Source of the DNA: Candidatus Chisholmbacteria bacterium
GTDB lineage: Bacteria > Patescibacteriota > Microgenomatia > UBA1400 > Chisholmbacteraceae
Reading direction: 5' to 3'
DNA: 64,000 nucleotides
Assembly: GCA_963704905.1 (NCBI GenBank)
Contig: CAVPHZ010000001.1
Span: 323,438 to 387,437, forward strand
The notes beneath the pieces were generated by a model. The model had not been told where the DNA came from and searched no databases. It saw only the letters and a program-made list of their open reading frames with translations. The position numbers and the translations under genes are program-made. Positions within the stretch are counted from its first letter, which is position 1. Each line of letters starts with the position of its first letter. Of this stretch, positions 29,796-63,500 are shown in pieces.

Positions 29796-29854
29796 CAATT
29801 TTACAGAATAATGAATATTTACCAAATTTCAATTTTTAAAAATCTTCTATTTAT

Positions 29855-31219: not shown

Positions 31220-33118
31220 TTAAAGGGGTTTTTGAGACTGTTGTTTTGGAACGGTGGCAGTTTGCATGGGTAGTTCTTCTTCCTGTTTCTTTTCAATTTC
31301 AAGAATTTCTTGGGGCTTAGTTGTAATGAGTTTGTGTTCTTCGCTTGAGGCAACAACCCTCATTGCTACGTGATTTTGACCAGCAAAAAAGAGTCCTTCG
31401 CCAATGTCAGCTGCCAAGAGAAGGTGTCTTTCTCCTTCAGAAAGGAAGAATGTTTCAGAGAGTTGTTCAATAGCTGCTGTTGATTGTTTGAAAAGAACTT
31501 GGATTGATGAGTTGGTTACTATTGCTTTTCCGTAGTCGGAATTGAGAAAATCTTCTACGTCTTGAGAAATGGTGGTCAGACCAAGATAATATTTTCTCGC
31601 CCGCTTGGCAATGGAGTAGAGAAATGTAGCAGAATCCTGGTTTTTCATTAAGTACCAAGCCTCATCAACAACAACCAACCTTCTTTTCATGTCTCTCTTC
31701 ACTTTTGTCCAGATATAATCAAGAATTATATACATAATTGTTGGTCTGGTTTCGTCTTCAACTTCTTTTAACGAGAACACTGTAAAAGAGTTTTTTAAGT
31801 CAACATTGCTTTGCTGGTCGAAGAAGCTTCGAAGTGATCCTTTTACAAACTTCTCAAGCCTATCTGCTAATCCTTTTGCAACTTGCTCTTCCATACCTAT
31901 AAGCGTTTTATAGAGATCTTCCATAAGCGGTGGTTCATTTCTTTGTGTAGAAGGATCTGGGGTGATACCCCTGGCTTTGTAGGTTGCAATCAGCGCCCGG
32001 TCAAGTATGGCTTCTTCTGAGGGGTTGACATCCCCAAGCATCACCTTTAACAACCCATGAAGAGAGAGAATTTTTAACCCCAGCTCATTTTCACCTTCTT
32101 CATAAACAGCAGATAAATCAAATGGGTTGAGTTTAGTTTGGGTGTTCAAGCTCAAGTTAATATAAGTGCCTCCTAGTGTTTCACACATCCTTTTGTATTC
32201 TTCTTCTGGATCGATGACAATTACCTCTGTTTCAAACATGAGAGACCGTAGTATTTCGAGTTTTTCAAAAAAACTTTTTCCAGATCCGCTTTTTCCAAAA
32301 ATTGCCATGTTTGCGTTTTCCATAGTGAAACGGTCAAAAATGATTAGTGAGTCGTTGTGTTCATTGATCCCATACATAATCCCTTCGTTGGCTGTTAATT
32401 CCGAAGAAGTGAAGGGAAAGGTTGTGGCGAGAGAGGTTGTATCCATGTTTCTGGTAACCACAAGCCGATCTTGGCCAAGAGGGAGTGTGGTTTTTAGACC
32501 TGCTTCCATCTGAAGAGTTGCTGCTTTTGAGATAATTAAGAGAGATCCAAGGGTGGATTGAACTTTTTTTGTCGTAGAATTTAATATTTCAAGAGAACTT
32601 GCACTTACTGTGATGTACAAACCAAACTGAAAGAAACGCTCTGCACCTTTAGCTAATTCTTGTTGGAGCCCTTTTGCATCTTCTAGTTTGATTTCTGTAT
32701 CTACGCTAGCGATATGACCGCGCTTGATGTCTGTTTCAATTTCAGCTTCCATTTCTCCAATTTTTCTTCGTAACTCGTCGAGAACTTCCCGACCTTCAAC
32801 GGGGTAGATAAACATAGAGATATCAAGAGAGTTTTCAAAGTTGATGAGGGGAGCCAGCCAGTTGGCGCTCACATACCTAGGATATCCAGCTACAAATAAC
32901 GTTCGGAGGAACATGTTTCCAACCTTGAGGTGATTGAAGTCAACGTCAATTGATTCCGGAGCAATGATGTCTTGAATTGAAACCATTCCGGATCCAAGTT
33001 GGTCTGCGGGATTTCCGGCATGTGCTTGTGGGGGGGTTGGATTTTGTAGAGTCTGTTCGCCGGCCTGCGTTTCCCTTTTTTTGTTTCTTTTTAGTGCATC
33101 TAAGATGTTTAAAGCCAT
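31220..33118 (-). CDS. VirB4/TrbE/CagE-family type IV secretion ATPase
   Basis: Walker A IFGKSGSGKSF, Walker B with the family-typical RLVVVDEAWYLM (DEAW), and a VirB4-like N-domain (LRTLFVAGYPRYV..WL). 632 aa. Confidence 0.6.
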   Translation of the reverse strand: MALNILDALKRNKKRETQAGEQTLQNPTPPQAHAGNPADQLGSGMVSIQDIIAPESIDVDFNHLKVGNMFLRTLFVAGYPRYVSANWLAPLINFENSLDISMFIYPVEGREVLDELRRKIGEMEAEIETDIKRGHIASVDTEIKLEDAKGLQQELAKGAERFFQFGLYITVSASSLEILNSTTKKVQSTLGSLLIISKAATLQMEAGLKTTLPLGQDRLVVTRNMDTTSLATTFPFTSSELTANEGIMYGINEHNDSLIIFDRFTMENANMAIFGKSGSGKSFFEKLEILRSLMFETEVIVIDPEEEYKRMCETLGGTYINLSLNTQTKLNPFDLSAVYEEGENELGLKILSLHGLLKVMLGDVNPSEEAILDRALIATYKARGITPDPSTQRNEPPLMEDLYKTLIGMEEQVAKGLADRLEKFVKGSLRSFFDQQSNVDLKNSFTVFSLKEVEDETRPTIMYIILDYIWTKVKRDMKRRLVVVDEAWYLMKNQDSATFLYSIAKRARKYYLGLTTISQDVEDFLNSDYGKAIVTNSSIQVLFKQSTAAIEQLSETFFLSEGERHLLLAADIGEGLFFAGQNHVAMRVVASSEEHKLITTKPQEILEIEKKQEEELPMQTATVPKQQSQKPL

Positions 33119-34119: not shown

Positions 34120-35235
34120 TCAGGTTGCTTTAATTTCTATTGGTGGAACGAGATTCCCTACTAGATCGATTTTGATTATATCAAAGCTTTGTCCTTCGTG
34201 TTCAACTTCAATTTCATACATCCCGCTGGTTAGGGGGGTGGCGATAAAAAATTGTCCAAGCTTATTTGTCTTTAGTGCTCTGGCGACATTATTATCTTGA
34301 TCTCTTATGGTGAGAATGGCACCTTCAACAATACTACCAAGTTTGTCGACAACCATCCCAACCAATACATTTGGGGTGATTGGAGGAGTAGGAATGGGGA
34401 GTTTTGGTTTGATGGTTGCCTGGGTTGTTTTGTAGGGTTCTCTATCAATTTTTATAACCCCGGTAGGTGATAGTTTTCCAATATCATATTGTTTATCTTC
34501 CTCATTTTGACCATTAGCGATTATGACGGGCGGAACTGGTATTTTTTCAGCTTTTACAATATTAAGAGGTTCGGCAATGGGCATGTCCAGCTTTTTCAAT
34601 CCCGCTCTTGACCTCTTGGGAAGTATCACCTCTCCCCGCATAATTGCTTTCGGATTCAGAGGGGGGGATTTTAGTTTTCTTACCTTCACCTTCACATCTG
34701 CTGCTTGTTCAAGATCTTCAGCCACTTGTCGCTGAGGTTTCACTTTAGTTATGTGTGTCGGTTGGACTTCTGTATACATTTTCATGATGTCACTAACAAA
34801 ATGATTTTCCTTGTTGTCAAGGTTAGTTTGCGGTCCCAGGCTCGGTAGTGTTTCTAAATAGGCCTTAAGTTTTTTTCTATCACTTTGCTCAGTCTCAGTT
34901 TCTTCATATTTTTTTATTTTTACTGTTTCGAAAAATCTCGGCATGATTGTTTGTTTTCTCCAGACGAATTTGGTTGGAGAGTAGATGGCTTTAATGAAGG
35001 CCACCAACCATCTATCTAGCGGGCGTTCCTCGAGGGGTAGAAACGCAAACGCTACTCCCAAAAAAACAGAAAATATTATTAATGGCCAGCGGATGATGCT
35101 TGACACCGGAAGGGAATAAATAATCCAAGCGACAATGATGCCAGCGATAAGTTCGAGAAATTGCTTGATGGTCATGTCGCCAATCAAGCGAAAGTGGTAT
35201 GAGGAGATTTGTTGTGGAACTGGGTGTTGTTCCAT
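34120..35235 (-). CDS. membrane protein with two N-terminal TM helices and C-terminal beta-sandwich-like domain (possible VirB3-like anchor)
   Basis: The N-terminus has two TM helices separated by a short loop (IIVAWIIYSLPV...LIIFSVFLGVAFAFLPL) followed by PLDRWL, reminiscent of VirB3/PrgI-type proteins next to VirB4. C-terminal about 90 aa resemble a carboxypeptidase-regulatory-like beta-sandwich. Confidence 0.35.
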   Translation of the reverse strand: MEQHPVPQQISSYHFRLIGDMTIKQFLELIAGIIVAWIIYSLPVSSIIRWPLIIFSVFLGVAFAFLPLEERPLDRWLVAFIKAIYSPTKFVWRKQTIMPRFFETVKIKKYEETETEQSDRKKLKAYLETLPSLGPQTNLDNKENHFVSDIMKMYTEVQPTHITKVKPQRQVAEDLEQAADVKVKVRKLKSPPLNPKAIMRGEVILPKRSRAGLKKLDMPIAEPLNIVKAEKIPVPPVIIANGQNEEDKQYDIGKLSPTGVIKIDREPYKTTQATIKPKLPIPTPPITPNVLVGMVVDKLGSIVEGAILTIRDQDNNVARALKTNKLGQFFIATPLTSGMYEIEVEHEGQSFDIIKIDLVGNLVPPIEIKAT

Positions 35236-44201: not shown

Positions 44202-45695
44202 TTATTTTCTTCGAGTTTCACCGGCGAGTGATTCAATCTTCTGGGCAACGTAGGTTCTGGCTCCGGAGGAGATTCCACCCGCCACACCTCGTACCGGGGC
44301 TGTGGCTACCCTAGCTCCAGCGGCAATTGGAGCAAAGATGCCGGCGGCCGGTATTCCTTTGGCTTTCAGCGCTTGCTGGAGCGTGGTTACCAGCTGGGGG
44401 GTAAAGAGGATGAAACCATATCCTATTAAAGCGAGGACAGATTCGACGTCTGTGGTAAAGCCGATGAAAGGCGGAAGCCAACCTTCACCACTATCTCTAA
44501 TGACTGAACTGGTTATTCCCCACTCATCTCTTCCTAAAGAACAACGGTCTGGATCACTTGAAGTACATGGACCCATGAGAATAGCTCCAATGAGGAGGAG
44601 GGCTGCAGCGGCAGGAAAGACAAGAACATTGGCGAGGAAATTTCGAGCCCAACTGCTGAAGCTGTCTGATCCAGGCAGAGCATTGGGAAGGATCATCAAC
44701 GGAGAGAAGATGGTCAGCATGATGATTTTTACATAGGACATGAGCAACTGGAAAAAGAGACGGAAGGCGGCAAACAGAAGTGCAACCGACATGATGACGG
44801 TGACAAATGCGTCTCCGACGATTCCGACGATAAAGCCAATGGTGTCGTTGTCAAACACGTTCTCAATGATATTTCTGATTTGATCTCCTGCGGTGTCCCC
44901 GGAAACCGTGTCAAAGCCTTTAAAGAGAATGGTAAAGATGTTTTCACCGATGAATACCTGGCGCGGTGCGGAGGCACTCGTTAGGAGCCCTTGAGTGTAT
45001 AGTGTTGAGATGACGAGATAGATGCCGAGGTAGATGAGGTCGACGAAAAAGCCTGCTATCGCAAAGGAAAAAGTGATGAGCAGCAAAGTGACCACAAGTT
45101 TTGGGAGCGAGTTTTGAAGGTTGACCACGGTTTGAGGGTCAAGCTGAGCGCGAAACATGATCATAAATCCAATGAAGATAAAGATGATCACGTAGGCAAG
45201 ATAGGCGATGTTTCTAAACGCAGCCCAGAGATCTGTCAAAGGAAGGAGGGCACGATAGCCGGTGCTCTGCGCATAGGCAGGTTCAACCGGGTTTATTTTG
45301 CGAGCGACGTATTGAATATATTGTCCTGAAGAAACAGGCCGTTCGGCGATAAGTCCGGCGATGAAGCCTCCGGCGAATTGTACTGCACCTGGCCGTCTAT
45401 AGCTGAATGGAGTCGGGTCTGCTGTGGGATGCTCAGTGGTTCTGAATGTCGAGGTACTGGTGGTGTTTAAGATTGCATTTACGATAGCAGTAACTGTGCA
45501 CTCAAGACCCACGTTTCCGTCAGCACATTCTTGCAGCGCCAAGTCGTGTTCGGCTGAGCTGGGCTGAAACCATAGGCTTTGGGCAAATATTGGTATGGAA
45601 AAGAGGGTGAATAACACGATGAGAACAGCAACGATTTTCCAGAGTGGTTTGTTGAGAACATTTCTGAGCCAGCGCAGGTGTTTCATCAGCGTCAT
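44202..45695 (-). CDS. polytopic membrane protein (VirB6/TrbL-like candidate)
   Basis: 497 aa with an N-terminal signal/TM and at least six further hydrophobic helices, in a T4SS-like context. Confidence 0.35.
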   Translation of the reverse strand: MTLMKHLRWLRNVLNKPLWKIVAVLIVLFTLFSIPIFAQSLWFQPSSAEHDLALQECADGNVGLECTVTAIVNAILNTTSTSTFRTTEHPTADPTPFSYRRPGAVQFAGGFIAGLIAERPVSSGQYIQYVARKINPVEPAYAQSTGYRALLPLTDLWAAFRNIAYLAYVIIFIFIGFMIMFRAQLDPQTVVNLQNSLPKLVVTLLLITFSFAIAGFFVDLIYLGIYLVISTLYTQGLLTSASAPRQVFIGENIFTILFKGFDTVSGDTAGDQIRNIIENVFDNDTIGFIVGIVGDAFVTVIMSVALLFAAFRLFFQLLMSYVKIIMLTIFSPLMILPNALPGSDSFSSWARNFLANVLVFPAAAALLLIGAILMGPCTSSDPDRCSLGRDEWGITSSVIRDSGEGWLPPFIGFTTDVESVLALIGYGFILFTPQLVTTLQQALKAKGIPAAGIFAPIAAGARVATAPVRGVAGGISSGARTYVAQKIESLAGETRRK

Positions 45696-51833: not shown

Positions 51834-52397
51834 ATGAAGTCGAAGTCTTCTGATATTGATGAGCGGTTACTTGTCGAAGGTTTGCTTAAGGGTTCAGAGC
51901 GTTGGTTAGGTTTGTATTACCGAACCTATTCATCTCCAGTTCGACGGTTTATCACTAGTCGAGTGAGGTTGCCTGATGATGCTGAGGAAATTCTCCAAGA
52001 TACTCTCTTATCTTCATTGGACTCTCTGGCACTCTTTTCGCGGAGATCGAGTTTGTTTACCTGGCTGTGCAGCATTGCGAGACATGAGATTGCGGATTAT
52101 TACCGGCGACGTACGATTAAGACGATTGTTTTTTCCAAGGTACCGTTTGTTGAGCGATTCGTGAGTCGGGCGCTTGAACCAGACGCCGGTTTTATGCGTC
52201 GTGAATATGAGCAGCGAGTTAAACAGGCGTTGTCTATGATTTTGCCTCATTATCGTACAGCGCTGGAGCTTAAATATATGGATGGGTTATCGGTGGCTGA
52301 AATCAGTGAACAACTGGGGATGAGTTTAAAAGCTTGTGAGTCGGTGCTTACCCGAGCGCGAAAGGCATTTGAGCTGGCGTATGAGCAGACAGCGTAG
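51834..52397 (+). CDS. ECF-type RNA polymerase sigma-70 family factor
   Basis: Region 2 (RFITSRVRLPDDAEEILQDTLL..L) and region 4 HTH (LSVAEISEQLGMSLKACESVLTRARKAF). 187 aa. Confidence 0.75.
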   Translation: MKSKSSDIDERLLVEGLLKGSERWLGLYYRTYSSPVRRFITSRVRLPDDAEEILQDTLLSSLDSLALFSRRSSLFTWLCSIARHEIADYYRRRTIKTIVFSKVPFVERFVSRALEPDAGFMRREYEQRVKQALSMILPHYRTALELKYMDGLSVAEISEQLGMSLKACESVLTRARKAFELAYEQTA

Positions 52398-52635
52398 TGA
52401 GAAAGAGTTTTATAGAGAACTTCAACGCAGGATTGGTGAAAACAAACAATTATATAGTGAGTCTTCCTTTCATCTTCCAGATTCGAGTTGTATGCGGTTT
52501 GTGGCTACCTACTTAGGTGTTAATCCATGGAAAGTGATCATTCCGGTGGCGGGTATTATAGTTTTGCTATTTCGAGTTGTGCTGGGAACGTCTTTTGCTG
52601 AGTTTATCTTAGATATTTTAGGAGGTGGATTATAG
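52381..52635 (+). CDS. putative single-pass anti-sigma factor
   Basis: Start (ATG at 52381) overlaps the sigma-factor stop by 17 nt. Short cytoplasmic part, one TM (VIIPVAGIIVLLFRVVLG). Classic ECF sigma/anti-sigma coupling; function inferred from context only. Confidence 0.35.
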   Translation: MSRQRSEKEFYRELQRRIGENKQLYSESSFHLPDSSCMRFVATYLGVNPWKVIIPVAGIIVLLFRVVLGTSFAEFILDILGGGL

Positions 52636-53119: not shown

Positions 53120-54400
53120 ATGACTACTGATGAATGGGTGAAAAAAAGTGTGCGGCAGGGAAAGTTGCTGGTTGAAGTTCCAGACCATTGGAGTGAGAAG
53201 AAGCGGGTGTTGGCTCGTCGGAAGGTGCTTGAGCAACTCACCGGTGTTCGCTTGTCTTCACTATCTTTGAATGAGGAGTTACTGAATGCAGCCTCCTCGA
53301 GAAATATTGAACAGGCAATTGGTGCGACTTCTGTTCCAGTTGGAATTGTTGGCCCGCTGCGCGTTCGCTCGGGGCAAGCACTTCAAATTTTCTCAAAACA
53401 AGACCTACGCATGCGTTCCCGCCATCAGGGTGGGCAAGCAAAAGAGGAGAAGGAATATTTTATACCAGTAGCGACAACTGAAGGAGCGCTGGTTGCGAGC
53501 ATCAATCGAGGGTGTAAGTCAATTACGCAGGCTGGTGGAGCTGCTGTGGTATCTGAAAAAATTGGGATTACACGGGCTCCTGTTTTTCGAGTACAAAGCC
53601 TCTCAGAGGGGAAGACATTTATTGCATATATCCGACAGCATTTGTCTGAACTGCGTACCATTGCACATGATACTGATCGACATCTGAAGCTTGTTCACAT
53701 AGAACCAAAGATGGTTGGACGGAGTGTTTTTTTACGATTTCGGTTTAATACCGAAGAAGCGATGGGAATGAATATGGCAACGATTGCTACTGATGCTCTT
53801 TCGCAGCATTTAGAAAAGGTTTGTAATGTTTCCTGTGTCAGTCTGTCGTCCAACTACTGTATTGATAAAAAGCCAGCATCGTTGAACTTTCAGTCTGGGC
53901 GAGGTTATCAAGTTTGGGCGGAAATTGTTTTACCGCCGTCTTCTGTAGCCAATTTACTTAAGACAACAGTTGAAAAAATTGCTGAAGTATCTTATCGAAA
54001 ACTGTTTGTCGGATCGGCACTTTCGAATTCACTGGGATTTAACGCACAATATGCCAATATTGTTGCGGCTTTGTTTCTGGCAACCGGGCAAGACATTGCT
54101 CATGTGGTGGAGGGATCGATGGGGATTACAACAGTTGAGCAGGTGAAGAAAGGACTCTATGTGAGTGTTTTCTTACCCTCGCTGGTTCTGGGAACGGTGG
54201 GTGGTGGAACTGGATTACCGGCTCAGAACGAAGCGCTACAGATCATGGGACTTGGTGGTGCTAAAACCGGAGATAGTGAAACATTGGCTGAGATTGTGGG
54301 TGCGACTGTGTTGGCTGGGGAGATTTCTCTTTTAGCATCTTTAGCGGAAGGGTCGCTGGCTCGGTCACACCAAAGACTGGGGAGGAACCATACAGCATGA
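53120..54400 (+). CDS. hmgA: HMG-CoA reductase, class I (archaeal/eukaryotic-type)
   Basis: EEAMGMNMATIATDA and LGTVGGGTGLPAQ match the class I DAMGMN / GTVGG motifs. 426 aa. Confidence 0.85.
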   Translation: MTTDEWVKKSVRQGKLLVEVPDHWSEKKRVLARRKVLEQLTGVRLSSLSLNEELLNAASSRNIEQAIGATSVPVGIVGPLRVRSGQALQIFSKQDLRMRSRHQGGQAKEEKEYFIPVATTEGALVASINRGCKSITQAGGAAVVSEKIGITRAPVFRVQSLSEGKTFIAYIRQHLSELRTIAHDTDRHLKLVHIEPKMVGRSVFLRFRFNTEEAMGMNMATIATDALSQHLEKVCNVSCVSLSSNYCIDKKPASLNFQSGRGYQVWAEIVLPPSSVANLLKTTVEKIAEVSYRKLFVGSALSNSLGFNAQYANIVAALFLATGQDIAHVVEGSMGITTVEQVKKGLYVSVFLPSLVLGTVGGGTGLPAQNEALQIMGLGGAKTGDSETLAEIVGATVLAGEISLLASLAEGSLARSHQRLGRNHTA

Positions 54401-55437
54401 TTCATCATAAAAAACTCACTGGAATTGGGATCGTTGGATATGGATCGTACGTTCCACGACTACGAATACGTATTTCGGAAATCGCCTCCTCGTATGGAGT
54501 CGACGGGAAACAAGTAGAACAGAATTTATGCGTCAAGCAAAAATCAGTGGCTCAGTGGGATGAAGATGTGGTGACGTTGGCGTACATGGCGAGTTCTGGT
54601 GCTCTTAGCATGGCAAATATTGATGCTACAAAAATTGGAGCACTCTATATTGGTAGTGAAAGCCATCCCTATGCGGTGAAGACTACGAGTACCATTGTTG
54701 GAGAAGCGCTCGGAGTTGGACATGAATACATGGCTGCTGACTTAGAATTTGCGTGTAAAGCAGGTACTTCGGGAGTGCAACTGATTGCTTCACATCTGCT
54801 CAGTGGTGTTATCTCATATGGTTTGGCTGTTGGGGCTGATGTGGCGCAGGCAGAGCCAGGAGATTTACTTGAATACACTGCCGCTGCCGGAGGAGCAGCT
54901 CTGCTTTTGGGAAAACGGAGAATACTAGCCCGATTAACTGGATTTTTTTCCTATTGCAGTGATACCAGCGATTTTTGGAGAAGGAGTGAGCAGAAGCTTC
55001 CACAGCATGCAGGACGTTTTACTGGGGAACCAGCATATTTCCGACACATTATTGCTGCAACTGAAGCTTTTTTTAAGGCTTCGAAAACCAATGCTTCTAC
55101 CTATGATCATGTGGTGTTTCATATGCCAAATGGAAAGTTTCCTGTACGAGCGGCTCAACGACTTGGTTTTGGCGAGAAACAATTAAAGCACGGCTTCATT
55201 GTTAGTGAGATCGGCAATCCGTATAGTGCTTCAACGCTTCTTGGTTTGTGCCGGGTGCTTGATAATGCAGATAACCAACAGCGCATACTTCTAGTTTCGT
55301 ACGGCTCAGGTGCAGGATCAGATGTGCTTTCTTTTTTTACAACACCGCTACTGGCAAGATACCGAAGAAGACTGTCGCAAGCAGCGCATCAACCAACCTA
55401 TCTTTCATATGGAGCATATCGGGCAATGGTGGGGTAA
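54397..55437 (+). CDS. hydroxymethylglutaryl-CoA synthase (archaeal-type, thiolase-fold)
   Basis: 346 aa, condensing-enzyme fold with active-site Cys context (LEFACKAGTSG). Translationally coupled to hmgA (ATGA overlap). Adjacent to the thiolase and DUF35 genes, as in archaeal HMGCS/thiolase/DUF35 complexes. Confidence 0.7.
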   Translation: MIHHKKLTGIGIVGYGSYVPRLRIRISEIASSYGVDGKQVEQNLCVKQKSVAQWDEDVVTLAYMASSGALSMANIDATKIGALYIGSESHPYAVKTTSTIVGEALGVGHEYMAADLEFACKAGTSGVQLIASHLLSGVISYGLAVGADVAQAEPGDLLEYTAAAGGAALLLGKRRILARLTGFFSYCSDTSDFWRRSEQKLPQHAGRFTGEPAYFRHIIAATEAFFKASKTNASTYDHVVFHMPNGKFPVRAAQRLGFGEKQLKHGFIVSEIGNPYSASTLLGLCRVLDNADNQQRILLVSYGSGAGSDVLSFFTTPLLARYRRRLSQAAHQPTYLSYGAYRAMVG

Positions 55438-55443
55438 TCAATT

Positions 55444-56622
55444 ATGGATAGAAGGCAACACATAGCTAGTCATGGGAAATTAGATATTGCCGTCCTTGGT
55501 GTAGGTCAGACGAAGTTTGGCGAGCTTTGGGACGCATCTCTTTTAGATCTGGCAACCGAGGCTTCTGCAGAAGCACTTCAGGATGCGAGCCTTGATTTTC
55601 GGCGGATAGACGCGGTGGTTGTGGGTAACATGCTTTCAAATACACTGCAAAATCAAGCACATTTAGGAGCGCTGGTTGCATCTCGACTCGGAATACAAGC
55701 CCCATCCTTACGAGTTGAAGGCGCTTGTGCATCTGGTGGGCTAGCAATTCGAACAGGCATTGAGAAGCTTTTGTCAGGAACTGCTGGGAACGTACTTGTG
55801 GTTGGAGTGGAAAAAATGACTGATCATTCCACTGACCTTTCAACCCAGGCTCTTATGGGTGCTTCGGATGCCCTAGAACAGTTTGCTGGAGTAACTTTTC
55901 CTGGTTTATATGCATTGGTTACCCGTGCGTATATGGAGGAGTTTGACGTTTCAGACCATAGTCTGGCAGGTGTTCCGGTTAAGAATCATGATCATGGAAT
56001 TTTGAACCCTAAGGCGCATTTTCGCTTTCGGATTAATACTGATCAGGTACTTGCGAGTCCATGTGTTGCTTCTCCTTTAAAACTTCTTGATTGTTCACCG
56101 CTGTCAGATGGTGCAGCTGCGGTTGTGCTGAGCCTTTCTAATGGATTTAAAAAACGATCGGTTCGGATTGTTGGTGCTGGGCAGGCGAGTGATGTCGTAC
56201 CTTTGGCTGATCGGCTTTCGCTCACGGAATTCAACGCAGCTCGCAAGGCTGCAGATGAAGTATTTGAAATGGCTTCTCTTGAACCTGCTGATGTTGATCT
56301 CATGGAAGTGCATGATTGTTTTACTATTGGAGAGATTTTAGCCCTTGAGGATATGGGGTTTTCAAAAAAAGGTGAGGGTTGGGTGATCGCATCGAATGGG
56401 GAGTGCCGTTTAGGTGGAAAAAGACCCGTCAATACATCTGGAGGACTTAAGTCGTGCGGGCACCCAGTTGCCGCAACGGGAGTTAAGCAAATTGTTGAGT
56501 TAACTCTCCAGCTTCGTGAAGCAGCAGGAAAGCGGCAAGTATCTGGCGCTCGGGTTGGGTTAGCTCATAATGTTGGTGGTGTTGGTGGAACTGCCGTTGT
56601 CCATTTACTTCAGTCAGCTTAG
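55444..56622 (+). CDS. acetyl-CoA C-acetyltransferase (archaeal-type thiolase)
   Basis: VEGACASGGLAIRTG (active-site Cys), ...CGHPVAATGV (C-terminal catalytic His/Cys region). 392 aa. Confidence 0.8.
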   Translation: MDRRQHIASHGKLDIAVLGVGQTKFGELWDASLLDLATEASAEALQDASLDFRRIDAVVVGNMLSNTLQNQAHLGALVASRLGIQAPSLRVEGACASGGLAIRTGIEKLLSGTAGNVLVVGVEKMTDHSTDLSTQALMGASDALEQFAGVTFPGLYALVTRAYMEEFDVSDHSLAGVPVKNHDHGILNPKAHFRFRINTDQVLASPCVASPLKLLDCSPLSDGAAAVVLSLSNGFKKRSVRIVGAGQASDVVPLADRLSLTEFNAARKAADEVFEMASLEPADVDLMEVHDCFTIGEILALEDMGFSKKGEGWVIASNGECRLGGKRPVNTSGGLKSCGHPVAATGVKQIVELTLQLREAAGKRQVSGARVGLAHNVGGVGGTAVVHLLQSA

Positions 56623-56627
56623 CTGTT

Positions 56628-56972
56628 ATGACTCAAACGACTCCAGTTTCCTTATCTCGATCAAAAGAAACACGCTACCGACTTCTGGGAAAGGTGGGAT
56701 CTGTTGTCTCATATACTTCCATTGCGGTTGGGCCAAATGGCCTTAAGAAACGAACACCGTATTTGATAGCAATTGTTGATTTCGGTGCCATGCGAGCAAC
56801 TCTGCCGCTGGCTGATGTTTCTGCTGGTGAAGTAAAAAATGGAATGAAGGTTGTGGGTGTGATGCGAAGGATGTCTGATCCTAGTGAAGATGGGATTATT
56901 TCTTATGGTGTGAAGTGTGTGCCAGTAGTCATGAATATCCGGAAGAGCTCAAAGAACAAAAACAATGAATAA
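56628..56972 (+). CDS. DUF35-like OB-fold protein (thiolase/HMGCS scaffold), lacking Zn-ribbon cysteines
   Basis: 114-aa ORF immediately after the thiolase. OB-fold-like composition. Assigned mainly by the conserved three-gene arrangement known from archaea. Confidence 0.45.
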   Translation: MTQTTPVSLSRSKETRYRLLGKVGSVVSYTSIAVGPNGLKKRTPYLIAIVDFGAMRATLPLADVSAGEVKNGMKVVGVMRRMSDPSEDGIISYGVKCVPVVMNIRKSSKNKNNE

Positions 56973-57507
56973 CATGCAACGAATGCACATCGATCAACAG
57001 GTTGTCTTGGTGGATGAGATGGACAGACCAATTGGCACGGCAGCCAAGAATGAGGTTCATACTGCTCATACACCTCTTCATCGAGGTTTGTCTGTGTTTC
57101 TTTTTGATAACAATGGCAAGGTTTTGGTGCAACAGCGGGCGCTTCGTAAGCAGACTTGGCCAGGGGTGTGGAGCAATTCTTGTTGTGGTCATCCTCAGCC
57201 TGGAGAAACATATGATCAGGCAGTATTACGAGAGGTGAAAGAGGAATTAGGCTTAGAGATACAGGATCTGAAAAAAGTGTCAGATTATCGATACCTATTT
57301 GAACGTGACGGGATGGTTGAAAATGAAATTTGCCCTGTTTTCATGGGAACGGCTGTGGGTGAAGTTACACTGGACCCAAGTGAAGTTGCTGATTATAAGT
57401 GGATGAAGTGGGAGGATTTCAAGCAGGCATTGAAAGATGATAGCGATGGAACATGGAGTGAGTGGTGTAAAGAGGAAGCTACGTTAGTGGACAAATTACT
57501 GCAGTAA
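56965..57507 (+). CDS. idi: isopentenyl-diphosphate delta-isomerase, type 1 (Nudix-fold)
   Basis: LHRGLSVFLFDNNGKVLVQQRALRKQTWPGVWSNSCCGHPQPGE...REVKEELG is the IDI-1 signature including the catalytic CC. Confidence 0.88.
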   Translation: MNNMQRMHIDQQVVLVDEMDRPIGTAAKNEVHTAHTPLHRGLSVFLFDNNGKVLVQQRALRKQTWPGVWSNSCCGHPQPGETYDQAVLREVKEELGLEIQDLKKVSDYRYLFERDGMVENEICPVFMGTAVGEVTLDPSEVADYKWMKWEDFKQALKDDSDGTWSEWCKEEATLVDKLLQ

Positions 57508-57510
57508 TGT

Positions 57511-58392
57511 ATGAAACCTGTAACGAGTAGATTTTCAGGAAAAGTGTTACTCAGCGGAGAACACAGCGTGGTTTACGGTCAGCCAGCACTTGTGGCAAGT
57601 GTTGATCGGAACATGACAGTTACCCTGCGACCTTCTAACGGTTTTCATTTACAGAGCGCTGTTGAGGATAAAATAGGTTTGGTTAGATATGCGCTTGAGT
57701 TGGCTGAGGTTGACCCTGATGTTTATAGCGTATCTATTGATTCAAATATTCCCTCTGGTTTAGGGACTTCGGCTGCGGTGTGTGCTGGTGTTATTCAAGC
57801 AGCTTATGAGTCGGTTGGAAATAAATTGGAGCGGGATGCGTTATTTCGACTGGCTTGGCAATGTGAGAAGAGAGCACATGGAAATTCTTCTGGTGTTGAT
57901 CCCGCAGCCGTCGTGTATGGAGGATTAATCTGGTATGTCCGGGATAAGGAGAGAACGACACTTCCACTCAAAACACACTACTCTTTTCTTTTGGTTGATA
58001 GCGGGACTCCTAAAGAATCTACTGGAGAGATGGTTTCATTGGTTGGTTCTCGCCTCAAACACAAGAAAGCAACATTCAAGAAACATATTACAGAAATCGG
58101 AGAAGTGACAAGATTATTTCGGAGACAGCTTTTGAAAGGACAGAGAGTTACAAAAGTAATTAATGATAACGGTTTGTTACTTGAGAAATTGGGGATCGTT
58201 AGTAAACAGACTCGAGAATTAAGCGAACACTTACGGGCAATGGGTTGCGGGGTGAAAGTAACCGGTGCAGGTGGTGTGAAAACAGGTTCTGGAATGCTTC
58301 TGGTTGACCATCCTGAGTTTGATACTATTTCAAGGAAATTAACATCTATGAGACTCAATTTGTTTGAGATTATCATTGGAGATGATCTATGA
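57511..58392 (+). CDS. GHMP kinase, mevalonate kinase family (mevalonate or phosphomevalonate kinase)
   Basis: N-terminal GKVLLSGEHSVVYGQPALVASV, and a GHMP ATP-binding loop PSGLGTSAAV. Confidence 0.6.
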   Translation: MKPVTSRFSGKVLLSGEHSVVYGQPALVASVDRNMTVTLRPSNGFHLQSAVEDKIGLVRYALELAEVDPDVYSVSIDSNIPSGLGTSAAVCAGVIQAAYESVGNKLERDALFRLAWQCEKRAHGNSSGVDPAAVVYGGLIWYVRDKERTTLPLKTHYSFLLVDSGTPKESTGEMVSLVGSRLKHKKATFKKHITEIGEVTRLFRRQLLKGQRVTKVINDNGLLLEKLGIVSKQTRELSEHLRAMGCGVKVTGAGGVKTGSGMLLVDHPEFDTISRKLTSMRLNLFEIIIGDDL

Positions 58393-59369
58393 ACACAGTT
58401 GTTTCTTCTGCGCCGGGAAAGCTGATGCTCTTTGGCGAACATGCGGTCGTGTATGGTCATCCATGCATTGTGACCGCAGTTGATCAGCGAATGCGTGTTT
58501 CTGTTTCATTCAACGGAAAAGGTGAGATTGTTGTCCGGGCTCCGCAGGTCGGGTTGGAGAGATATTCAAAAAAAATCGCGCTTTTGGGAAAACACGATGT
58601 TCCAAAACCAGTTCGTTTTATTGAATTGTTAGTGAAGAATTATCAGGATCAGTATGGTTTGGAGCGAGGGTTGGATATAATAACTGAGAGTGAATTTTCA
58701 GCCGATTATGGATTTGGTTCCTCGGCTGCTGTTACCGTTGCTCTTGCATATGGATTAGCTCAACTTCATTCTCTTCGGTTATCAAATCAGCAATTGTTTG
58801 AGCTTTGCTTCAAAGCGGTATTGGATGTCCAAGGTGTCGGTTCTGGTTTTGATATTGCAGCATCTATATATGGGGGCACGCTTTATTATATTAAAGGAGG
58901 TAGTAGCATTCAGTCGATATCTTGGGATGGCGATTGTCCAATAGTTGTTGGATACACAGGTATTAAAGCTGATACACCAACGCTTATTCGGCAGGTGGCG
59001 GAATATCGTGTGCATCAACTAGAAAAAACTACATCGACTTTTGAGCACATTTCAGAGATTGTTCATTCAGCTGAAGTTGCTTTTAGTAAACAACAGTATA
59101 AGGTTTTAGGAAAACTTGCGACTAAGAATCAAAAACTTCTTCATTCATTAGGAATTAGCAGTGTAGAGTTGGATCGACTTATCAGCGCCGCTCAACAAGC
59201 AGGAGCACTTGGATCTAAGCTCTCCGGAGCCGGTGGAGGGGATTGTATGATTTCCTTTGTGAGTGATAAGAAGAGAGAAGATGTTGAGGCGGTAATTTCA
59301 AATGCAGGTGGAGAAGTTGTCGATGTTCGTCTTCATGCTCAAGGAGTTCGAAAGGAGAAGATGTCATGA
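58389..59369 (+). CDS. GHMP kinase, mevalonate kinase family (second kinase of pathway)
   Basis: APGKLMLFGEHAVVYGHPCIV, and GFGSSAAVTVA. Translationally coupled on both sides. Confidence 0.6.
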   Translation: MNTVVSSAPGKLMLFGEHAVVYGHPCIVTAVDQRMRVSVSFNGKGEIVVRAPQVGLERYSKKIALLGKHDVPKPVRFIELLVKNYQDQYGLERGLDIITESEFSADYGFGSSAAVTVALAYGLAQLHSLRLSNQQLFELCFKAVLDVQGVGSGFDIAASIYGGTLYYIKGGSSIQSISWDGDCPIVVGYTGIKADTPTLIRQVAEYRVHQLEKTTSTFEHISEIVHSAEVAFSKQQYKVLGKLATKNQKLLHSLGISSVELDRLISAAQQAGALGSKLSGAGGGDCMISFVSDKKREDVEAVISNAGGEVVDVRLHAQGVRKEKMS

Positions 59370-60346
59370 AAGCGACAGCTTGGGCACCAGTAAATGTTGC
59401 ACTGATCAAGTATTGGGGAAAAGATGACCTACGGTTTCGTTTACCCTCAAACTCTAGTTTTTCCGTTTGCCTTAAGAGGCTAGGGACGCTGACAACTGTA
59501 GAATTCTCGCAAGATTTTATTAAGGATAAGGTAGGTATTGATGGATCTATCGCTGAAGAACGTGATCTCGATAGAGTTGTAGGACATGTTGATCATATGC
59601 GTAAGTTGAGAGGTGTTCAGTATCCCGTTCAAATTGAGTCGAAGAATAATTTTCCTATGAGTGTTGGTTTGTCTTCTTCAGCCTCGGGGTTTGCTGCGTT
59701 GAGCAAGGCAACTGATTCTGCTCTGGAATTGGGATTATCACCTCGCCAGTTATCTCGTATTGCACGCATGGGTTCGGGATCAGCTAGCAGAAGTGTTCCT
59801 GATGGTTGGGTTGAGTGGCGAGCTGGAACTTCTGATGTTTCTTCATATTCTGAGTCAATTTTTCCTGCCGATCATTGGGATTTACGTGTTTTGGTTATAT
59901 TACTCAGTCAAGATGAAAAACGGGTGAGTTCTACTGATGGACATGCAGCTGCTCAAACGAGTCCTTTTTTTAAAGTTAGAAAACGGGAGATTCGCAAGAA
60001 ATTGGTAAACATGAAGACGTTTGTTCAGGAGAGAAATTTTTCTCTATTTGGTGAGCTTTTGGAGGATGAAGCTCTGAACATGCATGCGGTGATGCTGACG
60101 AGTAAACCAAATTTAATTTATTGGTTGCCTGAGACAGTAAGAGTTATGCAAGCAATACAAGATTGGCGAGCTCAAGGTTTAGAGAGTTACTTTACGATTA
60201 ACACAGGGCAGAATGTGTTTGTGTTTTGTAAACCTAAAGATGAGAACCGATTAGTTAGAAAATTATCAAGGCTTGAAGGAGTAATTGAGATAAGGAGAGA
60301 TAGCATTGGGCGCGGGGCGAAAATTATAAAGAAGCATTTGTTTTAG
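59366..60346 (+). CDS. mvaD: diphosphomevalonate decarboxylase (MVD family)
   Basis: N-terminal AWAPVNVALIKYWGK and a GHMP-like SVGLSSSASGFAAL are typical of mevalonate diphosphate decarboxylase. Confidence 0.78.
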   Translation: MKATAWAPVNVALIKYWGKDDLRFRLPSNSSFSVCLKRLGTLTTVEFSQDFIKDKVGIDGSIAEERDLDRVVGHVDHMRKLRGVQYPVQIESKNNFPMSVGLSSSASGFAALSKATDSALELGLSPRQLSRIARMGSGSASRSVPDGWVEWRAGTSDVSSYSESIFPADHWDLRVLVILLSQDEKRVSSTDGHAAAQTSPFFKVRKREIRKKLVNMKTFVQERNFSLFGELLEDEALNMHAVMLTSKPNLIYWLPETVRVMQAIQDWRAQGLESYFTINTGQNVFVFCKPKDENRLVRKLSRLEGVIEIRRDSIGRGAKIIKKHLF

Positions 60347-60352
60347 AGCACT

Positions 60353-61066
60353 ATGACAATTGAAACTGAGAATTTACCCAAGCATATCGCAATCATCATG
60401 GACGGTAATCGGCGATGGGCGAGGAACAAGGGATTGCCGGCCGTGGCAGGACATGATTATGTGGCGGAAAAACTACTTGAACCTTTGGTTGACCGGTGCA
60501 TTGAGCTGGGAATACCGTTTATAACGTTCTGGGCATTTTCAACCGAGAATTGGCAGAGAAATCAGCGAGAAGTTAAAGGGATGATGCGGATATTCCGTAA
60601 AGGGTTAAAGCGGAATGCACGGCGGTTATTTGAGAAGGGTGCGCGGCTTACCATCATCGGAGATATTGAAAAGTTTCCAGAAGATATTTCCTTGCAAACG
60701 AAAGAGTGGGTTGAGAAGAGCAGAGAGAATAAGAATATTACCGTGAGTTTCGCTTTGAATTATGGTGGAAGAGATGAACTGCTTCGTGCTATTGCAAAGA
60801 TTGAAGCAGCAATTATTACTAATAAATTTTCAATTTCTAAATTGAATGAAAAAACGTTTGCTCAATACTTGGATACAGAGGGGATACCGGATCCTGACTT
60901 AATCATTCGCACCGGAGGAGAACAGCGACTTTCAGGGTTTATGAGCTGGCAGAGTGCTTATAGTGAGCTTTATTTTACTCAGACACTTATGCCTGACTTT
61001 GACGCGGAATGTCTTAGTGAAGCGGTTCAGTGGTATCAGCAGAGGAACCGACGGTTTGGCAGATAA
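60353..61066 (+). CDS. uppS: isoprenyl transferase (undecaprenyl-diphosphate synthase family)
   Basis: HIAIIMDGNRRWA...FSTENWQR...RTGGEQRLSGF is the cis-prenyltransferase signature. Confidence 0.9.
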   Translation: MTIETENLPKHIAIIMDGNRRWARNKGLPAVAGHDYVAEKLLEPLVDRCIELGIPFITFWAFSTENWQRNQREVKGMMRIFRKGLKRNARRLFEKGARLTIIGDIEKFPEDISLQTKEWVEKSRENKNITVSFALNYGGRDELLRAIAKIEAAIITNKFSISKLNEKTFAQYLDTEGIPDPDLIIRTGGEQRLSGFMSWQSAYSELYFTQTLMPDFDAECLSEAVQWYQQRNRRFGR

Positions 61067-61072: not shown

Positions 61073-61435
61073 TTATGGTGTGAATTGAAATCCAATTAAT
61101 ACTTCGACGAGTCTCCAAATCCAGAACGCAGCGAATATCAATATAAAGCCAACGAGCGATGCGGTGAGTCGTTTCTTCCCTTTTTCTAATCCTTCTGGAT
61201 TTCCTGCAGACATGAGGAGCTGATAACCAGAGACAATAATCATGAAGATCAGTATTACCCCAGCGATTGCAAATGCGTAGGTAGTGAGTCCTATTCCACT
61301 GCCGCTTCCGGTCAGTATTGTGCCTAGATTTGTAAGATCTCCGGTTCCGCTTCCGTACTCTGTGCCTCCAGGAGGTGAGGAACAGTACCAGCCACCTCCC
61401 CAGGGATAACAATAGGCTTGTGCAAGCAATTCCAT
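61073..61435 (-). CDS. T4SS pilin-like protein (second cluster, member A)
   Basis: Loop QLLMSAGNPEGLEKGKKRLTASLVGFILIFAAFWIW between two TM helices, related to the 48.8-51.8 kb paralogs. Confidence 0.45.
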   Translation of the reverse strand: MELLAQAYCYPWGGGWYCSSPPGGTEYGSGTGDLTNLGTILTGSGSGIGLTTYAFAIAGVILIFMIIVSGYQLLMSAGNPEGLEKGKKRLTASLVGFILIFAAFWIWRLVEVLIGFQFTP

Positions 61436-61444
61436 TATTTGGTT

Positions 61445-62239
61445 TTAAATAAATAAGTCTAGAAACTCTCTTGTAATGAGGTTGAGTATTAACCAGGCAA
61501 AAATCATTATAATCACACCGGTGATACCACGACTAAATACTTCTCTGCCGCGTTTAATCTGCTCGACATCACCCCGTGAAGTAAGCACGAAAAACGCACC
61601 TATCACCATGGTCAACAAGGCAACCCCTCCGATTGCTCCGACGAATAATCTTCGTACCCCAGCCAGGAAGTACAGCGGATGGGTGGGAAAGCATCCTAGA
61701 GCGGTGTCTAGGGGTGGATGATCAGTACAAAAGTCAGCCGTGAAATTAGAAGGCTGCCATGGAAGAGGGCAACTACACTCAGTTGGTTGCATTGGCTGTT
61801 CACAGCTGTTTCCGTTGTCGGTGTCAATGGTACAGCCCGCGTCTTCTGAGAGGTTGAGAGAAGAAAGTGAACACCAGGTTAATCCGATGGCGGTTCTCAG
61901 TCTTACCTTCAGAGATAAATTTTTATCCTGACATGATGGAATGACATGGTAGGTGGAGCAGGTGTACCAGAAGCCTGCTCCATCCTGAGCAGTGGCGTCG
62001 GTGCTGAAAGAGTGCCAGTTGTCGCAACTTCCTTCTCCCGAAGTATGGAGGCCATGTACTTGAAGCTCTTCCTCGGTTTCAAACTCACCTGCACAGAGAT
62101 CAAAACTCGATGAGGTGATGTTGAACGCTTCACAACGGGCTGCATAGATATTTTTTGTCGAAAATACGGTGGCAACTATCAGTATAAATAGGGTAATAGC
62201 GAATTTTCTTTTCATATTTCTTTTAACCATTGCATGCAA
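61445..62239 (-). CDS. chimeric protein: signal peptide, Cys-rich ectodomain and C-terminal pilin-like two-helix domain
   Basis: The N-terminal 190 aa have about 14 Cys (CEAFNITSSSFDLCAGE...CSCPLPW). The C-terminus LLTMVIGAFFVLTSRGDVEQIKRGREVFSRGITGVIIMIFAWLIL is pilin-like. Start may be the Met at 62215 (MKRKFAITLF). Confidence 0.45.
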   Translation of the reverse strand: MHAMVKRNMKRKFAITLFILIVATVFSTKNIYAARCEAFNITSSSFDLCAGEFETEEELQVHGLHTSGEGSCDNWHSFSTDATAQDGAGFWYTCSTYHVIPSCQDKNLSLKVRLRTAIGLTWCSLSSLNLSEDAGCTIDTDNGNSCEQPMQPTECSCPLPWQPSNFTADFCTDHPPLDTALGCFPTHPLYFLAGVRRLFVGAIGGVALLTMVIGAFFVLTSRGDVEQIKRGREVFSRGITGVIIMIFAWLILNLITREFLDLFI

Positions 62240-62421
62240 ACGGTGGTGATAATTATCACCATTCTAGCGGATTTATTTAAGGCATGTATCTATGAGTGTA
62301 ACAAAGCACGTTTACCTCCAGCAACTTAACGATTCCAGCGATTATCAAAAGATAAATAAACTTCGGCGAAGATCCAGATGATTTGTGGTAATGAAAAGGT
62401 TTTAACTCCCCATTCTTGTTC

Positions 62422-62808
62422 TCAGCTGGTGAACTGGTAGTAGCCGATGAGGACTTGGATGAGTTGAAAAATCCAGAATGCGGCAAATATGAGAATGAAA
62501 CCTACGAGCGAGGCAGTTAAGCGTTTTTTTCCAGTCTCTATCCCTTCTGGATTTCCTACAGAGGTGAGGAGTTGATAGCCAGAAGCAATGATCATGAGCA
62601 GTAAAATAAGGCCAGCGACTGCAAGGATATACGGCATGAGACTGCCAATCATTGCGCCTAGGCTGGAAAGATTCCCTATACTAAAACCATAACTTTGCGG
62701 ATTTGGGACGACCCGCCAGCTCCCAGCCCACGGTATTTGTAAATACATAAAAATCATCTTCTTACCCCTCCGATTGTTACTGCAGTATATTGAGCACGTC
62801 AACCCCAA
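62422..62808 (-). CDS. T4SS pilin-like protein (second cluster, member B)
   Basis: QLLTSVGNPEGIETGKKRLTASLVGFILIFAAFWIF, almost identical in its loop/TM2 to member A. Recent duplicate. Confidence 0.45.
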   Translation of the reverse strand: MGLTCSIYCSNNRRGKKMIFMYLQIPWAGSWRVVPNPQSYGFSIGNLSSLGAMIGSLMPYILAVAGLILLLMIIASGYQLLTSVGNPEGIETGKKRLTASLVGFILIFAAFWIFQLIQVLIGYYQFTS

Positions 62809-63500
62809 TCAATTCGAGCAGGAAGGTTGAGAAAATCAAAAACAATAAGCCAACTATTCCACCGGTCATGATCTCCTTTCCCCGCTTCATTCTTTCAGGC
62901 TGGCCCTGAGAAGTGAGCGTAAAGAAGGCGCCGATTATCATGATGAGAAGGGCGAGTCCTCCGCCTAATGCCAAGCAAGATGCCTCTGAAGGTGTTGAGA
63001 AATGAAATGGGGTGGGTGGGAATGCAGCCAACGGCGGTGTCAATGCTTGGATATTCGGTGATATAGGCAATACAATCATCGTATCCAGGTCCGGGGAGGC
63101 ACGTGTCGCATTCGGTGGGCAGGAAGGAGTCTACGCAGGTAGGGGAGGAGCTGAGGGGTCGACACAGCAGTCACTCCAAAATCCGCACCCACCATCGCCA
63201 TCGAAATTGCAGCGGAGCTGAGCAGGCTGGGGTAAACCACTCACAGGTGCCCGCAATGCCAGTACTTTCCCCAATGCACGCACCACCGGCGAGCGGTTCA
63301 CATTCGCAGGCTCTCAGATTGCAGGCAACTGATAGCGGAGCACACGCTACTGTGGGATCGGTGTCTGGGGGACAATTGCATAAACAACTGCCTGAATAAA
63401 ACTGGCAGACTCCGGGAACAGCAAATGTGTCTTTCGGCAACACTGCTGTGAATATTAGAAGCGTAAAGAGTATGAAAATCGAGGAAAGGTACTTTCTCAT
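62777..63500 (-). pseudogene. probable frameshift-split gene: Cys-rich secreted N-part (63171-63500) plus pilin-like C-part (62777-63079)
   Basis: 63171..63500 encodes a signal peptide plus Cys-rich module (CQFYSGSCLCNCPPDTDP...). 62777..63079, in a different frame, encodes a pilin-like domain (LLIMIIGAFFTLTSQGQPERMKRGKEIMTGGIVGLLFLIF). Together they mirror the intact chimeric architecture of 61445..62239. Confidence 0.4.

Follow-up and report, generated by a model that had tools for sequence, protein, structure and literature searches.

In bacteria of the Candidate Phyla Radiation (CPR, Patescibacteria) the genes of the mevalonate pathway are clustered and are typically syntenic with the gene of undecaprenyl/polyprenyl diphosphate synthase (cis-IPPS, UppS), and the set was probably present already in the CPR ancestor, as reported by Hoshino and Gaucher (2018, Mol Biol Evol 35:2185, PMC6107057). 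Here we describe a nine-gene operon at positions 53120-61066 of a 64,000-nucleotide stretch of contig CAVPHZ010000001.1; this whole stretch is referred to below as the window. The operon is another instance of the cluster published in 2018, having the same gene set and the same synteny with cis-IPPS. We find that it is very probably a conserved, vertically inherited mevalonate and UppS operon of a Microgenomates-type Patescibacteria bacterium, and that three of its products have unusual features that run through the lineage: a DUF35 scaffold protein without its zinc ribbon, a kinase of the phosphomevalonate kinase (PMK) type that profile models name mevalonate kinase (MVK), and an MVD-family decarboxylase that is intermediate between phosphomevalonate decarboxylase (PMD) and diphosphomevalonate decarboxylase (DMD) and in which Asn replaces the catalytic Asp. 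No description of these features was found in the literature searched. The 2018 report does not mention DUF35 and, as far as it was read, speaks neither of the active-site substitutions of the decarboxylase nor of the ambiguity of the kinases.

The upper part of the operon resembles the archaeal complex of acetoacetyl-CoA thiolase with HMG-CoA synthase (HMGCS) and DUF35, whose three components are homologous to those described here and are encoded in the same HMGCS-thiolase-DUF35 order. The archaeal system is a heterododecamer in which a shared CoA site allows channelling of acetoacetyl-CoA, whereas the present system is known from its genes and a single-chain model. Unlike the locus of the archaeal complex, the operon of the window also includes HMG-CoA reductase (HMGR), the lower pathway and UppS, and whereas the DUF35 of that complex carries a Cys4 rubredoxin-like zinc ribbon, the DUF35 of the window is devoid of it owing to a deletion of about 34 residues.

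The lower part has the composition of the classical pathway of Gram-positive cocci, Sulfolobales and some DPANN archaea, namely two GHMP kinases, an MVD-family decarboxylase and isopentenyl-diphosphate isomerase (IDI), with no isopentenyl-phosphate kinase (IPK) nearby. It differs from the classical pathway in that the PMK-type kinase stays below the cutoffs of the PMK equivalog models and is scored as an MVK, and in that the decarboxylase carries a PMD-like Arg and His together with Asn for the catalytic Asp; in DPANN loci with a canonical PMK the decarboxylase signature is the canonical K/I-or-K/M/D. With the Chloroflexi/haloarchaea-type pathway, which consists of MVK, PMD and IPK, the locus shares a decarboxylase that is most similar to a PMD of that pathway (PDB entry 6N0X) and has its Arg and His, but the window enzyme has a DMD-type Lys, it is accompanied by a PMK-type kinase, and the 64-kb window holds no IPK.

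A conserved operon of Patescibacteria

A first-pass annotation of this DNA, made from the letters alone, had described nine co-directional, mostly translationally coupled genes and had named their products as HMGR, HMGCS, thiolase, a DUF35-like protein, type 1 IDI (IDI-1), two GHMP kinases, an MVD-family decarboxylase and UppS. The genes and their identities are confirmed. The nine open reading frames lie on the plus strand and fill the interval 53120-61066 at the coordinates given in the table below, with start/stop overlaps of 4 bp at 54397, 58389 and 59366 and of 8 bp at 56965; the remaining intergenic gaps are 3-6 bp, the UppS gene beginning 6 bp past the decarboxylase gene. Families were assigned by comparing Pfam and NCBIfam profile scores with the curated cutoffs, and most of the nine families score above the cutoff. 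The catalytic motifs of HMGR, HMGCS, thiolase, IDI, UppS and both kinases are intact.

The window is a segment of a Patescibacteria chromosome of the Microgenomates type. It contains yidC, jag, dnaA and dnaN, which are genes of the replication origin, together with a cluster of type IV secretion system (T4SS) genes of the CPR type and arrays of T4SS_pilin genes. The closest named homologues of HMGCS and of the decarboxylase come from Gottesman-, Woese-, Davies-, Roizman- and Beckwithbacteria and from entries named 'Microgenomates group' and 'Patescibacteria group'. When clustered at 90% identity the proteins of the window stand alone, and the HMGCS closest to that of the window is 65% identical. 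A metagenomic relative (locus L081), with an HMGCS of 65% identity, has the same layout from end to end: pilin array, sigma factor of the extracytoplasmic function (ECF) group, HMGR, HMGCS, thiolase, a DUF35 of 100 aa, IDI, two kinases, decarboxylase, UppS and a second pilin array. The core order is found also in Daviesbacteria (L002, L005), in Roizmanbacteria (L069) and in a distant CPR contig (L083), and UppS is joined to the mevalonate genes in L081, L002, L005 and L083.

The first-pass annotation had proposed that an archaeal-type module flanked by pilin genes was acquired horizontally, and had suggested a phylogeny of HMGR, HMGCS and thiolase as a check. In neighbour-joining (NJ) trees built from 81 loci among the matches listed, mostly archaeal and including no bacterial sequences from outside the CPR, the window enzymes group with their CPR homologues apart from archaea, with bootstrap values of 182/200 for HMGR, 175/200 for HMGCS, 198/200 for thiolase and 197/200 for the decarboxylase. 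As the relatives share the gene order and four enzymes group with the CPR apart from archaea, recent horizontal acquisition is not supported. A recent transfer of the archaeal upper module, or of the whole pilin-flanked island, into a bacterium that otherwise uses the methylerythritol-phosphate (MEP) pathway would agree with the archaeal type of the module, with the patchy distribution of mevalonate pathways across bacteria and with the identity of HMGCS to DPANN and methanogen homologues (48-53%), which is about level with that to named CPR homologues (50-55%). It is nevertheless hard to reconcile with the separate CPR clades, with a gene order kept across Daviesbacteria, Roizmanbacteria and L083, or with L081, in which the order, the upstream ECF sigma gene and the flanking T4SS pilin arrays are all kept despite only 65% identity of HMGCS. 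Nor does it fit the GC content of the operon (0.446), which is like that of the neighbouring DNA, or the deletion in DUF35, which is specific to the CPR and absent from all 56 archaeal loci among the matches listed; the presence of the pathway in the CPR ancestor is inferred as well in PMC6107057. We regard such a transfer as extremely unlikely and retain vertical inheritance within the Patescibacteria.

Some contigs are filed in public collections under names that do not match their genes (L015, L017, L014 and L054). Among these, genes of the CPR type for HMGCS, thiolase and short DUF35 stand on two loci labelled Nevskiaceae and Methanoperedens, and genes of the Methanomethylophilaceae type on contigs labelled Dialister hominis and Bacteroides ovatus. 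They are likely binning contaminants in public metagenome-assembled genomes.

The upper module is of the archaeal type

The archaeal character that had been ascribed to the HMGR, HMGCS, thiolase and DUF35 module is confirmed by profile scores and by PDB matches. HMGR (PF00368, E 8.5e-111) belongs to class I and not to class II, in line with the earlier assignment: it scores 399 bits with the class I model TIGR00533 as opposed to 28 bits with the class II model TIGR00532, and its closest PDB entry is the archaeal class I enzyme 6HR7 (320 bits). All six PDB matches at E<=1e-10 are labelled HMG-CoA reductase, the class not being annotated in the output; the human HMGR entries 1DQ8 and 2Q1L among them are class I. 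The motifs TTEG(119), EAMGMN(213), DKKP(249), GQD(323), GTVGG(358) and RSH(415) are present, so that of the 'DAMGMN/GTVGG-type motifs' named before, GTVGG stands and the other reads EAMGMN. Compared with 6HR7 the enzyme has a charged insertion of about 22 extra residues at about positions 85-110 (window 53372-53449; …SKQDLRMRSRHQGGQAKEEKE…), which breaks the profile match into two stretches.

HMGCS scores 438 bits with NF003274 (cutoff 244) and 389 bits with the archaeal model TIGR00748 (cutoff 353), whereas with the bacterial model TIGR01835 it scores 128 bits, below the cutoff of 360. The thiolase scores 469 bits with NF004720 (cutoff 420). The E-C-H-N tetrad of HMGCS and the CxS, HDxF and GHx motifs of archaeal thiolases, as defined in PMC12960953, are all present: the tetrad E88/C120/H242/N274 is invariant across 32 homologues, and the thiolase carries C95-A-S, H290-D-C-F and G339-H-P. 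Comparison of the CPR thiolase with archaeal thiolases revealed no CPR-specific insertion or deletion larger than one residue, and a search of the CPR thiolase and HMGCS for insertions that might replace the ribbon of DUF35 revealed none larger than two residues.

A DUF35 protein without a zinc ribbon

The fourth gene encodes a protein of 114 aa that the first-pass annotation had taken for a DUF35-like OB-fold protein lacking the paired cysteines of the zinc ribbon. Its kinship with the archaeal scaffold family is borne out by the match to PF01796, the C-terminal OB domain of DUF35 (37.9 bits; cutoff 27.1), and by its top PDB sequence match, 6ESQ_E, the DUF35 subunit of the thiolase/HMGCS complex of M. 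thermolithotrophicus (E 2.6e-10), in which residues 15-101 of the query align with residues 44-129. The AlphaFold model of the protein (pLDDT 87.5) has as its best Foldseek match 6ESQ_F, upon which the OB fold superposes with a root-mean-square deviation of 1.8 A over 83 columns at 34% identity. The absence of the ribbon is equally clear, as the protein gives no match to a zinc-ribbon domain, has no CxxC and contains a single Cys, residue 97. In the alignment one clean deletion of 34 columns excises exactly the CxxC...CxxC ribbon and leaves in place both the OB fold and the N-terminal segment, whose consensus is SPxxxWR.

The short form is not peculiar to the window. A search of 1.84 billion representatives yielded 205 relatives, and the forms were counted in the best 150: 94 of these clusters are 93-118 aa long, lack an N-terminal CxxC and align from residue 3-5, whereas 30 are at least 125 aa long and have the ribbon; of the other 26, 5 are long proteins that lack CxxC, 17 are fragments of less than 93 aa and 4 take other forms. 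Among the matches listed, the short DUF35 is found in all six CPR-type loci (L081 and five others), and the full-length form in all 56 archaeal-type loci; the HMGCS-thiolase-DUF35 order itself is the same in about 56 archaeal loci. The literature searched for DUF35 together with Patescibacteria or CPR contained no relevant paper.

In the related PhlABC complex, the parts of the DUF35 subunit that lie buried between the partners are its N-terminal tail and its OB loops. As these are the parts that the short protein retains, we infer by analogy that it may still bridge thiolase and HMGCS. Statements on the contacts of the ribbon rest on secondary sources.

Three DPANN loci, two of Iainarchaeum and one of Micrarchaeota, encode a DUF35 that keeps its full length and has all four ribbon cysteines replaced (L001:12566-12970, L028:5260-5661 and L064:12808-13209). 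Judged from their sequences, these proteins represent a second, independent route to what would be a metal-free scaffold.

Two GHMP kinases and their probable order

The scores of the two GHMP kinases are probably misleading. The upstream kinase (kinase A) scores 158 bits with the MVK model TIGR00549, just under the cutoff of 163, which its orthologues in L081, L005 and L069 exceed, and its PDB matches are MVKs only, at no more than 69 bits. The downstream kinase (kinase B) is above the same cutoff with 208 bits, its top PDB match is the MVK of M. mazei (137 bits), and it scores 107.7 and 76 bits with the PMK models TIGR01220 and NF040957, below their respective cutoffs of 165.7 and 500. By profile and PDB scores kinase B would be the MVK and kinase A the PMK, an assignment that is overturned by the tree and the motifs.

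Kinase A has the MVK-type motifs HGNSSGVD and GAGGxxxGSG, and in an alignment with canonical MVKs and PMKs it shares with its orthologues a glycine loop that is modified and the HGxPSGxD motif of the MVK type. In contrast, kinase B and its CPR orthologues carry QGVGSGFD and GAGGGDC, which are common to canonical PMKs and absent from MVKs. In the NJ tree the CPR 'A' kinases form a clade on the MVK side (261/300 bootstraps), whereas kinase B joins the canonical PMKs of DPANN archaea (246/300). The references were canonical MVKs and PMKs from DPANN loci, one PMK of which passes the PMK equivalog model. The NJ run warned of saturated distances, and the tree is backed mainly by the motif alignment. 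Based on the motifs and the tree, the likely order, as predicted from sequence, is MVK (A), PMK (B) and decarboxylase. Automated annotation would probably report two mevalonate kinases and no PMK in such genomes.

Loci of Woesearchaeota and Iainarchaeum (L003:6875-8820 and 13520-14542; L001:13651-18908) combine an archaeal upper module with MVK, a PMK-type kinase and a decarboxylase of DMD signature, and the PMK-type kinase of Woesearchaeota falls into one clade with kinase B of the CPR. By these signatures the loci encode a predicted classical lower pathway in DPANN archaea.

The decarboxylase and the route of the lower pathway

The decarboxylase exceeds the cutoff of its model TIGR01240 (273 bits; cutoff 171) and yet fits neither of the two signatures in full. 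The signature of DMD consists of Lys21, a residue other than Arg at position 27, Met196 and the catalytic Asp, and of these the enzyme matches Lys only (K19), the others being Arg, His and Asn; as compared to the signature of PMD, which has no Lys21, Arg at 27 and His for Met196, Arg and His match and the Lys is kept. The meaning of the Lys and His positions can be seen in the PMD of Anaerolinea thermophila, 6N0X (PMC9254496), and its engineered version 6N0Z, the sequences of which differ by N to K in YWGN and by H to M in GH; PMC11052028 names these residues as a Lys that is conserved in DMD and a His that is conserved in PMD. These statements on engineered residues rest on secondary sources and on the sequence difference between the two entries. 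Arg25 of the window enzyme aligns with Arg83 of Roseiflexus MPD, which has been proposed to clash with and exclude the beta-phosphate (PMC3857490, Table 4).

The mixture is widespread among the 120 closest cluster representatives. The Lys position of YWGK is K in 96 and R in 23, the position of Arg25 is Arg in 110, and in 118 that of His193 is occupied by His or Gln where DMD has Met. At the position of the catalytic Asp, 85 have Asn (motif FT[IVL]NTGQ[ND]) and 35 have Asp, and all the named homologues with Asn are Patescibacteria. DPANN homologues and the yeast enzyme show the canonical K/non-Arg/M/D pattern.

Several observations speak against our reading of the locus as an inherited operon with a functional scaffold and a classical lower route. 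The top PDB match of the decarboxylase is the PMD 6N0X (258.6 bits), with DMDs reaching no more than 203 bits; R25 and H193 are PMD-like; and Asn279 (codon AAC, 60200-60202; motif TINTGQN) occupies the position of the Asp in DAGPN, such that, judging from its residues, the substrate and even the full activity of the enzyme are not certain. Furthermore, neither kinase attains the cutoff of a PMK equivalog model, the zinc ribbon is kept in all solved DUF35-containing complexes surveyed, no trans-prenyltransferase that could provide the primer of UppS was detected by Pfam in the 64-kb window, and our trees are NJ trees with a simple distance correction and not maximum-likelihood trees.

The PMD-like features could mean that the lower pathway is not strictly classical, in that the decarboxylase uses mevalonate-5-phosphate, or both substrates, and the resulting isopentenyl phosphate is phosphorylated by a GHMP kinase or by an IPK encoded elsewhere. 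That the closest structural relative of the decarboxylase is the Anaerolinea PMD, that Arg25 sits where Roseiflexus MPD has Arg83, that His193 corresponds to the very residue replaced in 6N0Z along with N to K, and that the Arg and the His or Gln are prevalent among the homologues all point in this direction, as do the present placement of the CPR beside Chloroflexota and the finding, in PMC6107057, that IPK is common and linked to mevalonate genes in other Microgenomates. However, the enzyme has the Lys of YWGK, a marker of DMD, and the gene immediately upstream of its own, translationally coupled to it, encodes the PMK-type kinase. An IPK is missing from the window both among open reading frames of at least 150 aa (Pfam) and among those of at least 60 aa (blastp with an M. 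jannaschii IPK query, which picks up the IPK encoded in an archaeal locus at E 1.7e-43), in agreement with the first-pass annotation; in six CPR loci, likewise, none turned up at 10 kb or less from the operon. We know of no GHMP kinase that phosphorylates isopentenyl phosphate. All in all we consider such a departure from the classical route unlikely. As a PMK-type kinase is coupled to the decarboxylase, and IPK is lacking both from the window and from the 10-kb surroundings of the operon in the six CPR loci, we favour the classical lower route, which is probable within our overall explanation. The earlier remark that the lower pathway 'looks classical' is probably right, but the decarboxylase is atypical.

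According to PMC9254496, the Asp that is replaced by Asn279 is one that DMD, PMD and MBD enzymes all conserve. The same source reports that the D281N variant of Sulfolobus DMD retains DMD activity and that the D309N variant of Picrophilus MBD is dead, and we therefore consider Asn279 to be compatible with function, if unusual. A different interpretation is that parts of the operon have decayed or have been repurposed, so that the DUF35 protein no longer acts as a scaffold, or the Asn279 enzyme is a poor or non-decarboxylating one, for instance a 3-kinase. The loss of a ribbon that the described complexes retain, the conservation of the Asp and the fate of the Picrophilus variant speak for such decay. 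Yet the features are conserved over many divergent lineages and are not sporadic (94/150 DUF35 short, 85/120 decarboxylases with the Asn motif), the genes remain in tightly coupled operons, the Sulfolobus variant is active, and the short DUF35 retains the N-terminal segment that is buried in PhlABC. Decay or repurposing is in our opinion very unlikely, and the reading of a functional operon with a classical lower route is the one we follow below.

IDI-1 scores 209.5 bits with NF002995 (cutoff 127) and 144.5 bits with TIGR02150 (cutoff 105.8) and has the motifs CCGHP(73) and ENE(119); UppS matches PF01255 (E 1.4e-74) and TIGR00055 (235.9 bits; cutoff 109.55) and has DGNRR(17) and RTGGE(186).

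Chromosomal context

The cumulative GC skew of the window has its minimum at about 28-30 kb, at the origin genes, and the skew of the plus strand downstream reaches up to 0.25. The window also encodes GroEL, LeuRS, TsaD and ribosomal protein L25, as found by the Pfam scan. A T4SS-like cluster occupies 31-50 kb, and the operon is flanked at either end by arrays of small 'T4SS_pilin' genes (PF18895). The flanking pilin arrays noted in the first-pass annotation encode type IV secretion system pilins and not type IV pili. Scans of the window with Rfam and for tRNAs gave no matches, and promoter and terminator scans did no better than on shuffled sequence.

Table. Genes of the mevalonate operon and of its surroundings in the window
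Feature	Length	Position	Strand	Basis
Class I (NADPH-type) HMG-CoA reductase	426 aa	53120..54400	+	PF00368, TIGR00533, motifs, PDB match 6HR7
Archaeal-type HMG-CoA synthase	346 aa	54397..55437	+	NF003274, TIGR00748, E-C-H-N tetrad
Archaeal-type acetoacetyl-CoA thiolase (AACT)	392 aa	55444..56622	+	NF004720, CxS/HDxF/GHx motifs
Short DUF35 protein, N-terminal helical segment and OB fold, without zinc ribbon	114 aa	56628..56972	+	PF01796, 6ESQ match
Type 1 isopentenyl-diphosphate isomerase (IDI-1)	180 aa	56965..57507	+	NF002995, TIGR02150, motifs
GHMP kinase A, divergent MVK-type, probable mevalonate kinase	293 aa	57511..58392	+	motifs, tree
GHMP kinase B, PMK-type, probable phosphomevalonate kinase	326 aa	58389..59369	+	motifs, tree; NCBIfam name is mevalonate kinase
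MVD-family ATP-dependent decarboxylase, mixed DMD/PMD markers, Asn279 for catalytic Asp	326 aa	59366..60346	+	TIGR01240
Undecaprenyl/polyprenyl diphosphate synthase (cis-IPPS, UppS)	237 aa	60353..61066	+	PF01255, TIGR00055
Replication-origin region		26139-31185		
jag/khpB-like		26139-26618	-	
yidC		26615-27367	-	
dnaA		28422-29795	+	
dnaN		30034-31185	+	
TraG/VirB4-like ATPase		31220-33118		
PrgI-like protein		34120-35235		
Protein with M23 peptidase domain	1114 aa	36385-39729		
Protein without Pfam match	1283 aa	40339-44190		
TrbL-like protein		44202-45695		
Region of T4SS-like cluster and upstream T4SS_pilin array		31220-51802		PF18895
Region of downstream T4SS_pilin array		61073-63500		PF18895

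Two cysteine-rich secreted or membrane proteins are encoded inside the downstream pilin array (61445-62239 and 63171-63500), the first of which has a T4SS_pilin domain at its end, the second being without an assignment. Immediately upstream of the operon lie the gene of an ECF sigma factor (51834-52397) and a small overlapping open reading frame (52336-52635), and an ECF sigma factor is found at the same position in L081. This position might reflect control of isoprenoid supply by envelope stress.

Discussion

We propose the following course for the pathway. Thiolase and HMGCS would condense three acetyl-CoA to HMG-CoA, probably acting as a channelling complex held by the small DUF35, and the class I HMGR would reduce HMG-CoA to mevalonate. 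The MVK-type kinase would convert mevalonate to mevalonate-5-phosphate and the PMK-type kinase would convert the latter to mevalonate-5-diphosphate, which the MVD-family enzyme would phosphorylate and decarboxylate to isopentenyl diphosphate (IPP); IDI-1 would then form dimethylallyl diphosphate (DMAPP) from IPP. UppS is predicted to elongate an allylic primer, yielding a long cis-polyprenyl diphosphate that serves as carrier lipid in the synthesis of cell wall and glycans, and the primer would have to derive from a trans-prenyltransferase encoded outside the window. The link to carrier lipids that the first-pass annotation drew through UppS is upheld.

It is conceivable, though we put it forward as a doubtful possibility, that the Patescibacteria have a mevalonate variant of their own, in which a metal-free DUF35 made of a helix and an OB fold assembles the channelling complex and the decarboxylase is an Asn-type PMD/DMD intermediate, possibly with dual specificity for the mono- and the diphosphate. 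If true, the variant would be a living intermediate in the proposed transitions from PMD to DMD and from MVK to PMK toward the classical pathway. The combination of mixed decarboxylase markers and Asn bears on how the classical pathway evolved from the phosphomevalonate route, and the CPR cluster has been used since 2018 to debate the antiquity of the mevalonate pathway.

The scaffold without a ribbon is a natural experiment on whether or not the zinc ribbon of DUF35 is needed for the channelling complex of thiolase and HMGCS. A PMK-type kinase that the models name mevalonate kinase indicates that automated pathway calls in such genomes can err. Finally, the supply of lipids and cell-wall precursors in the CPR is poorly understood, and the oddities of the decarboxylase bear on whether these bacteria really make their own IPP.

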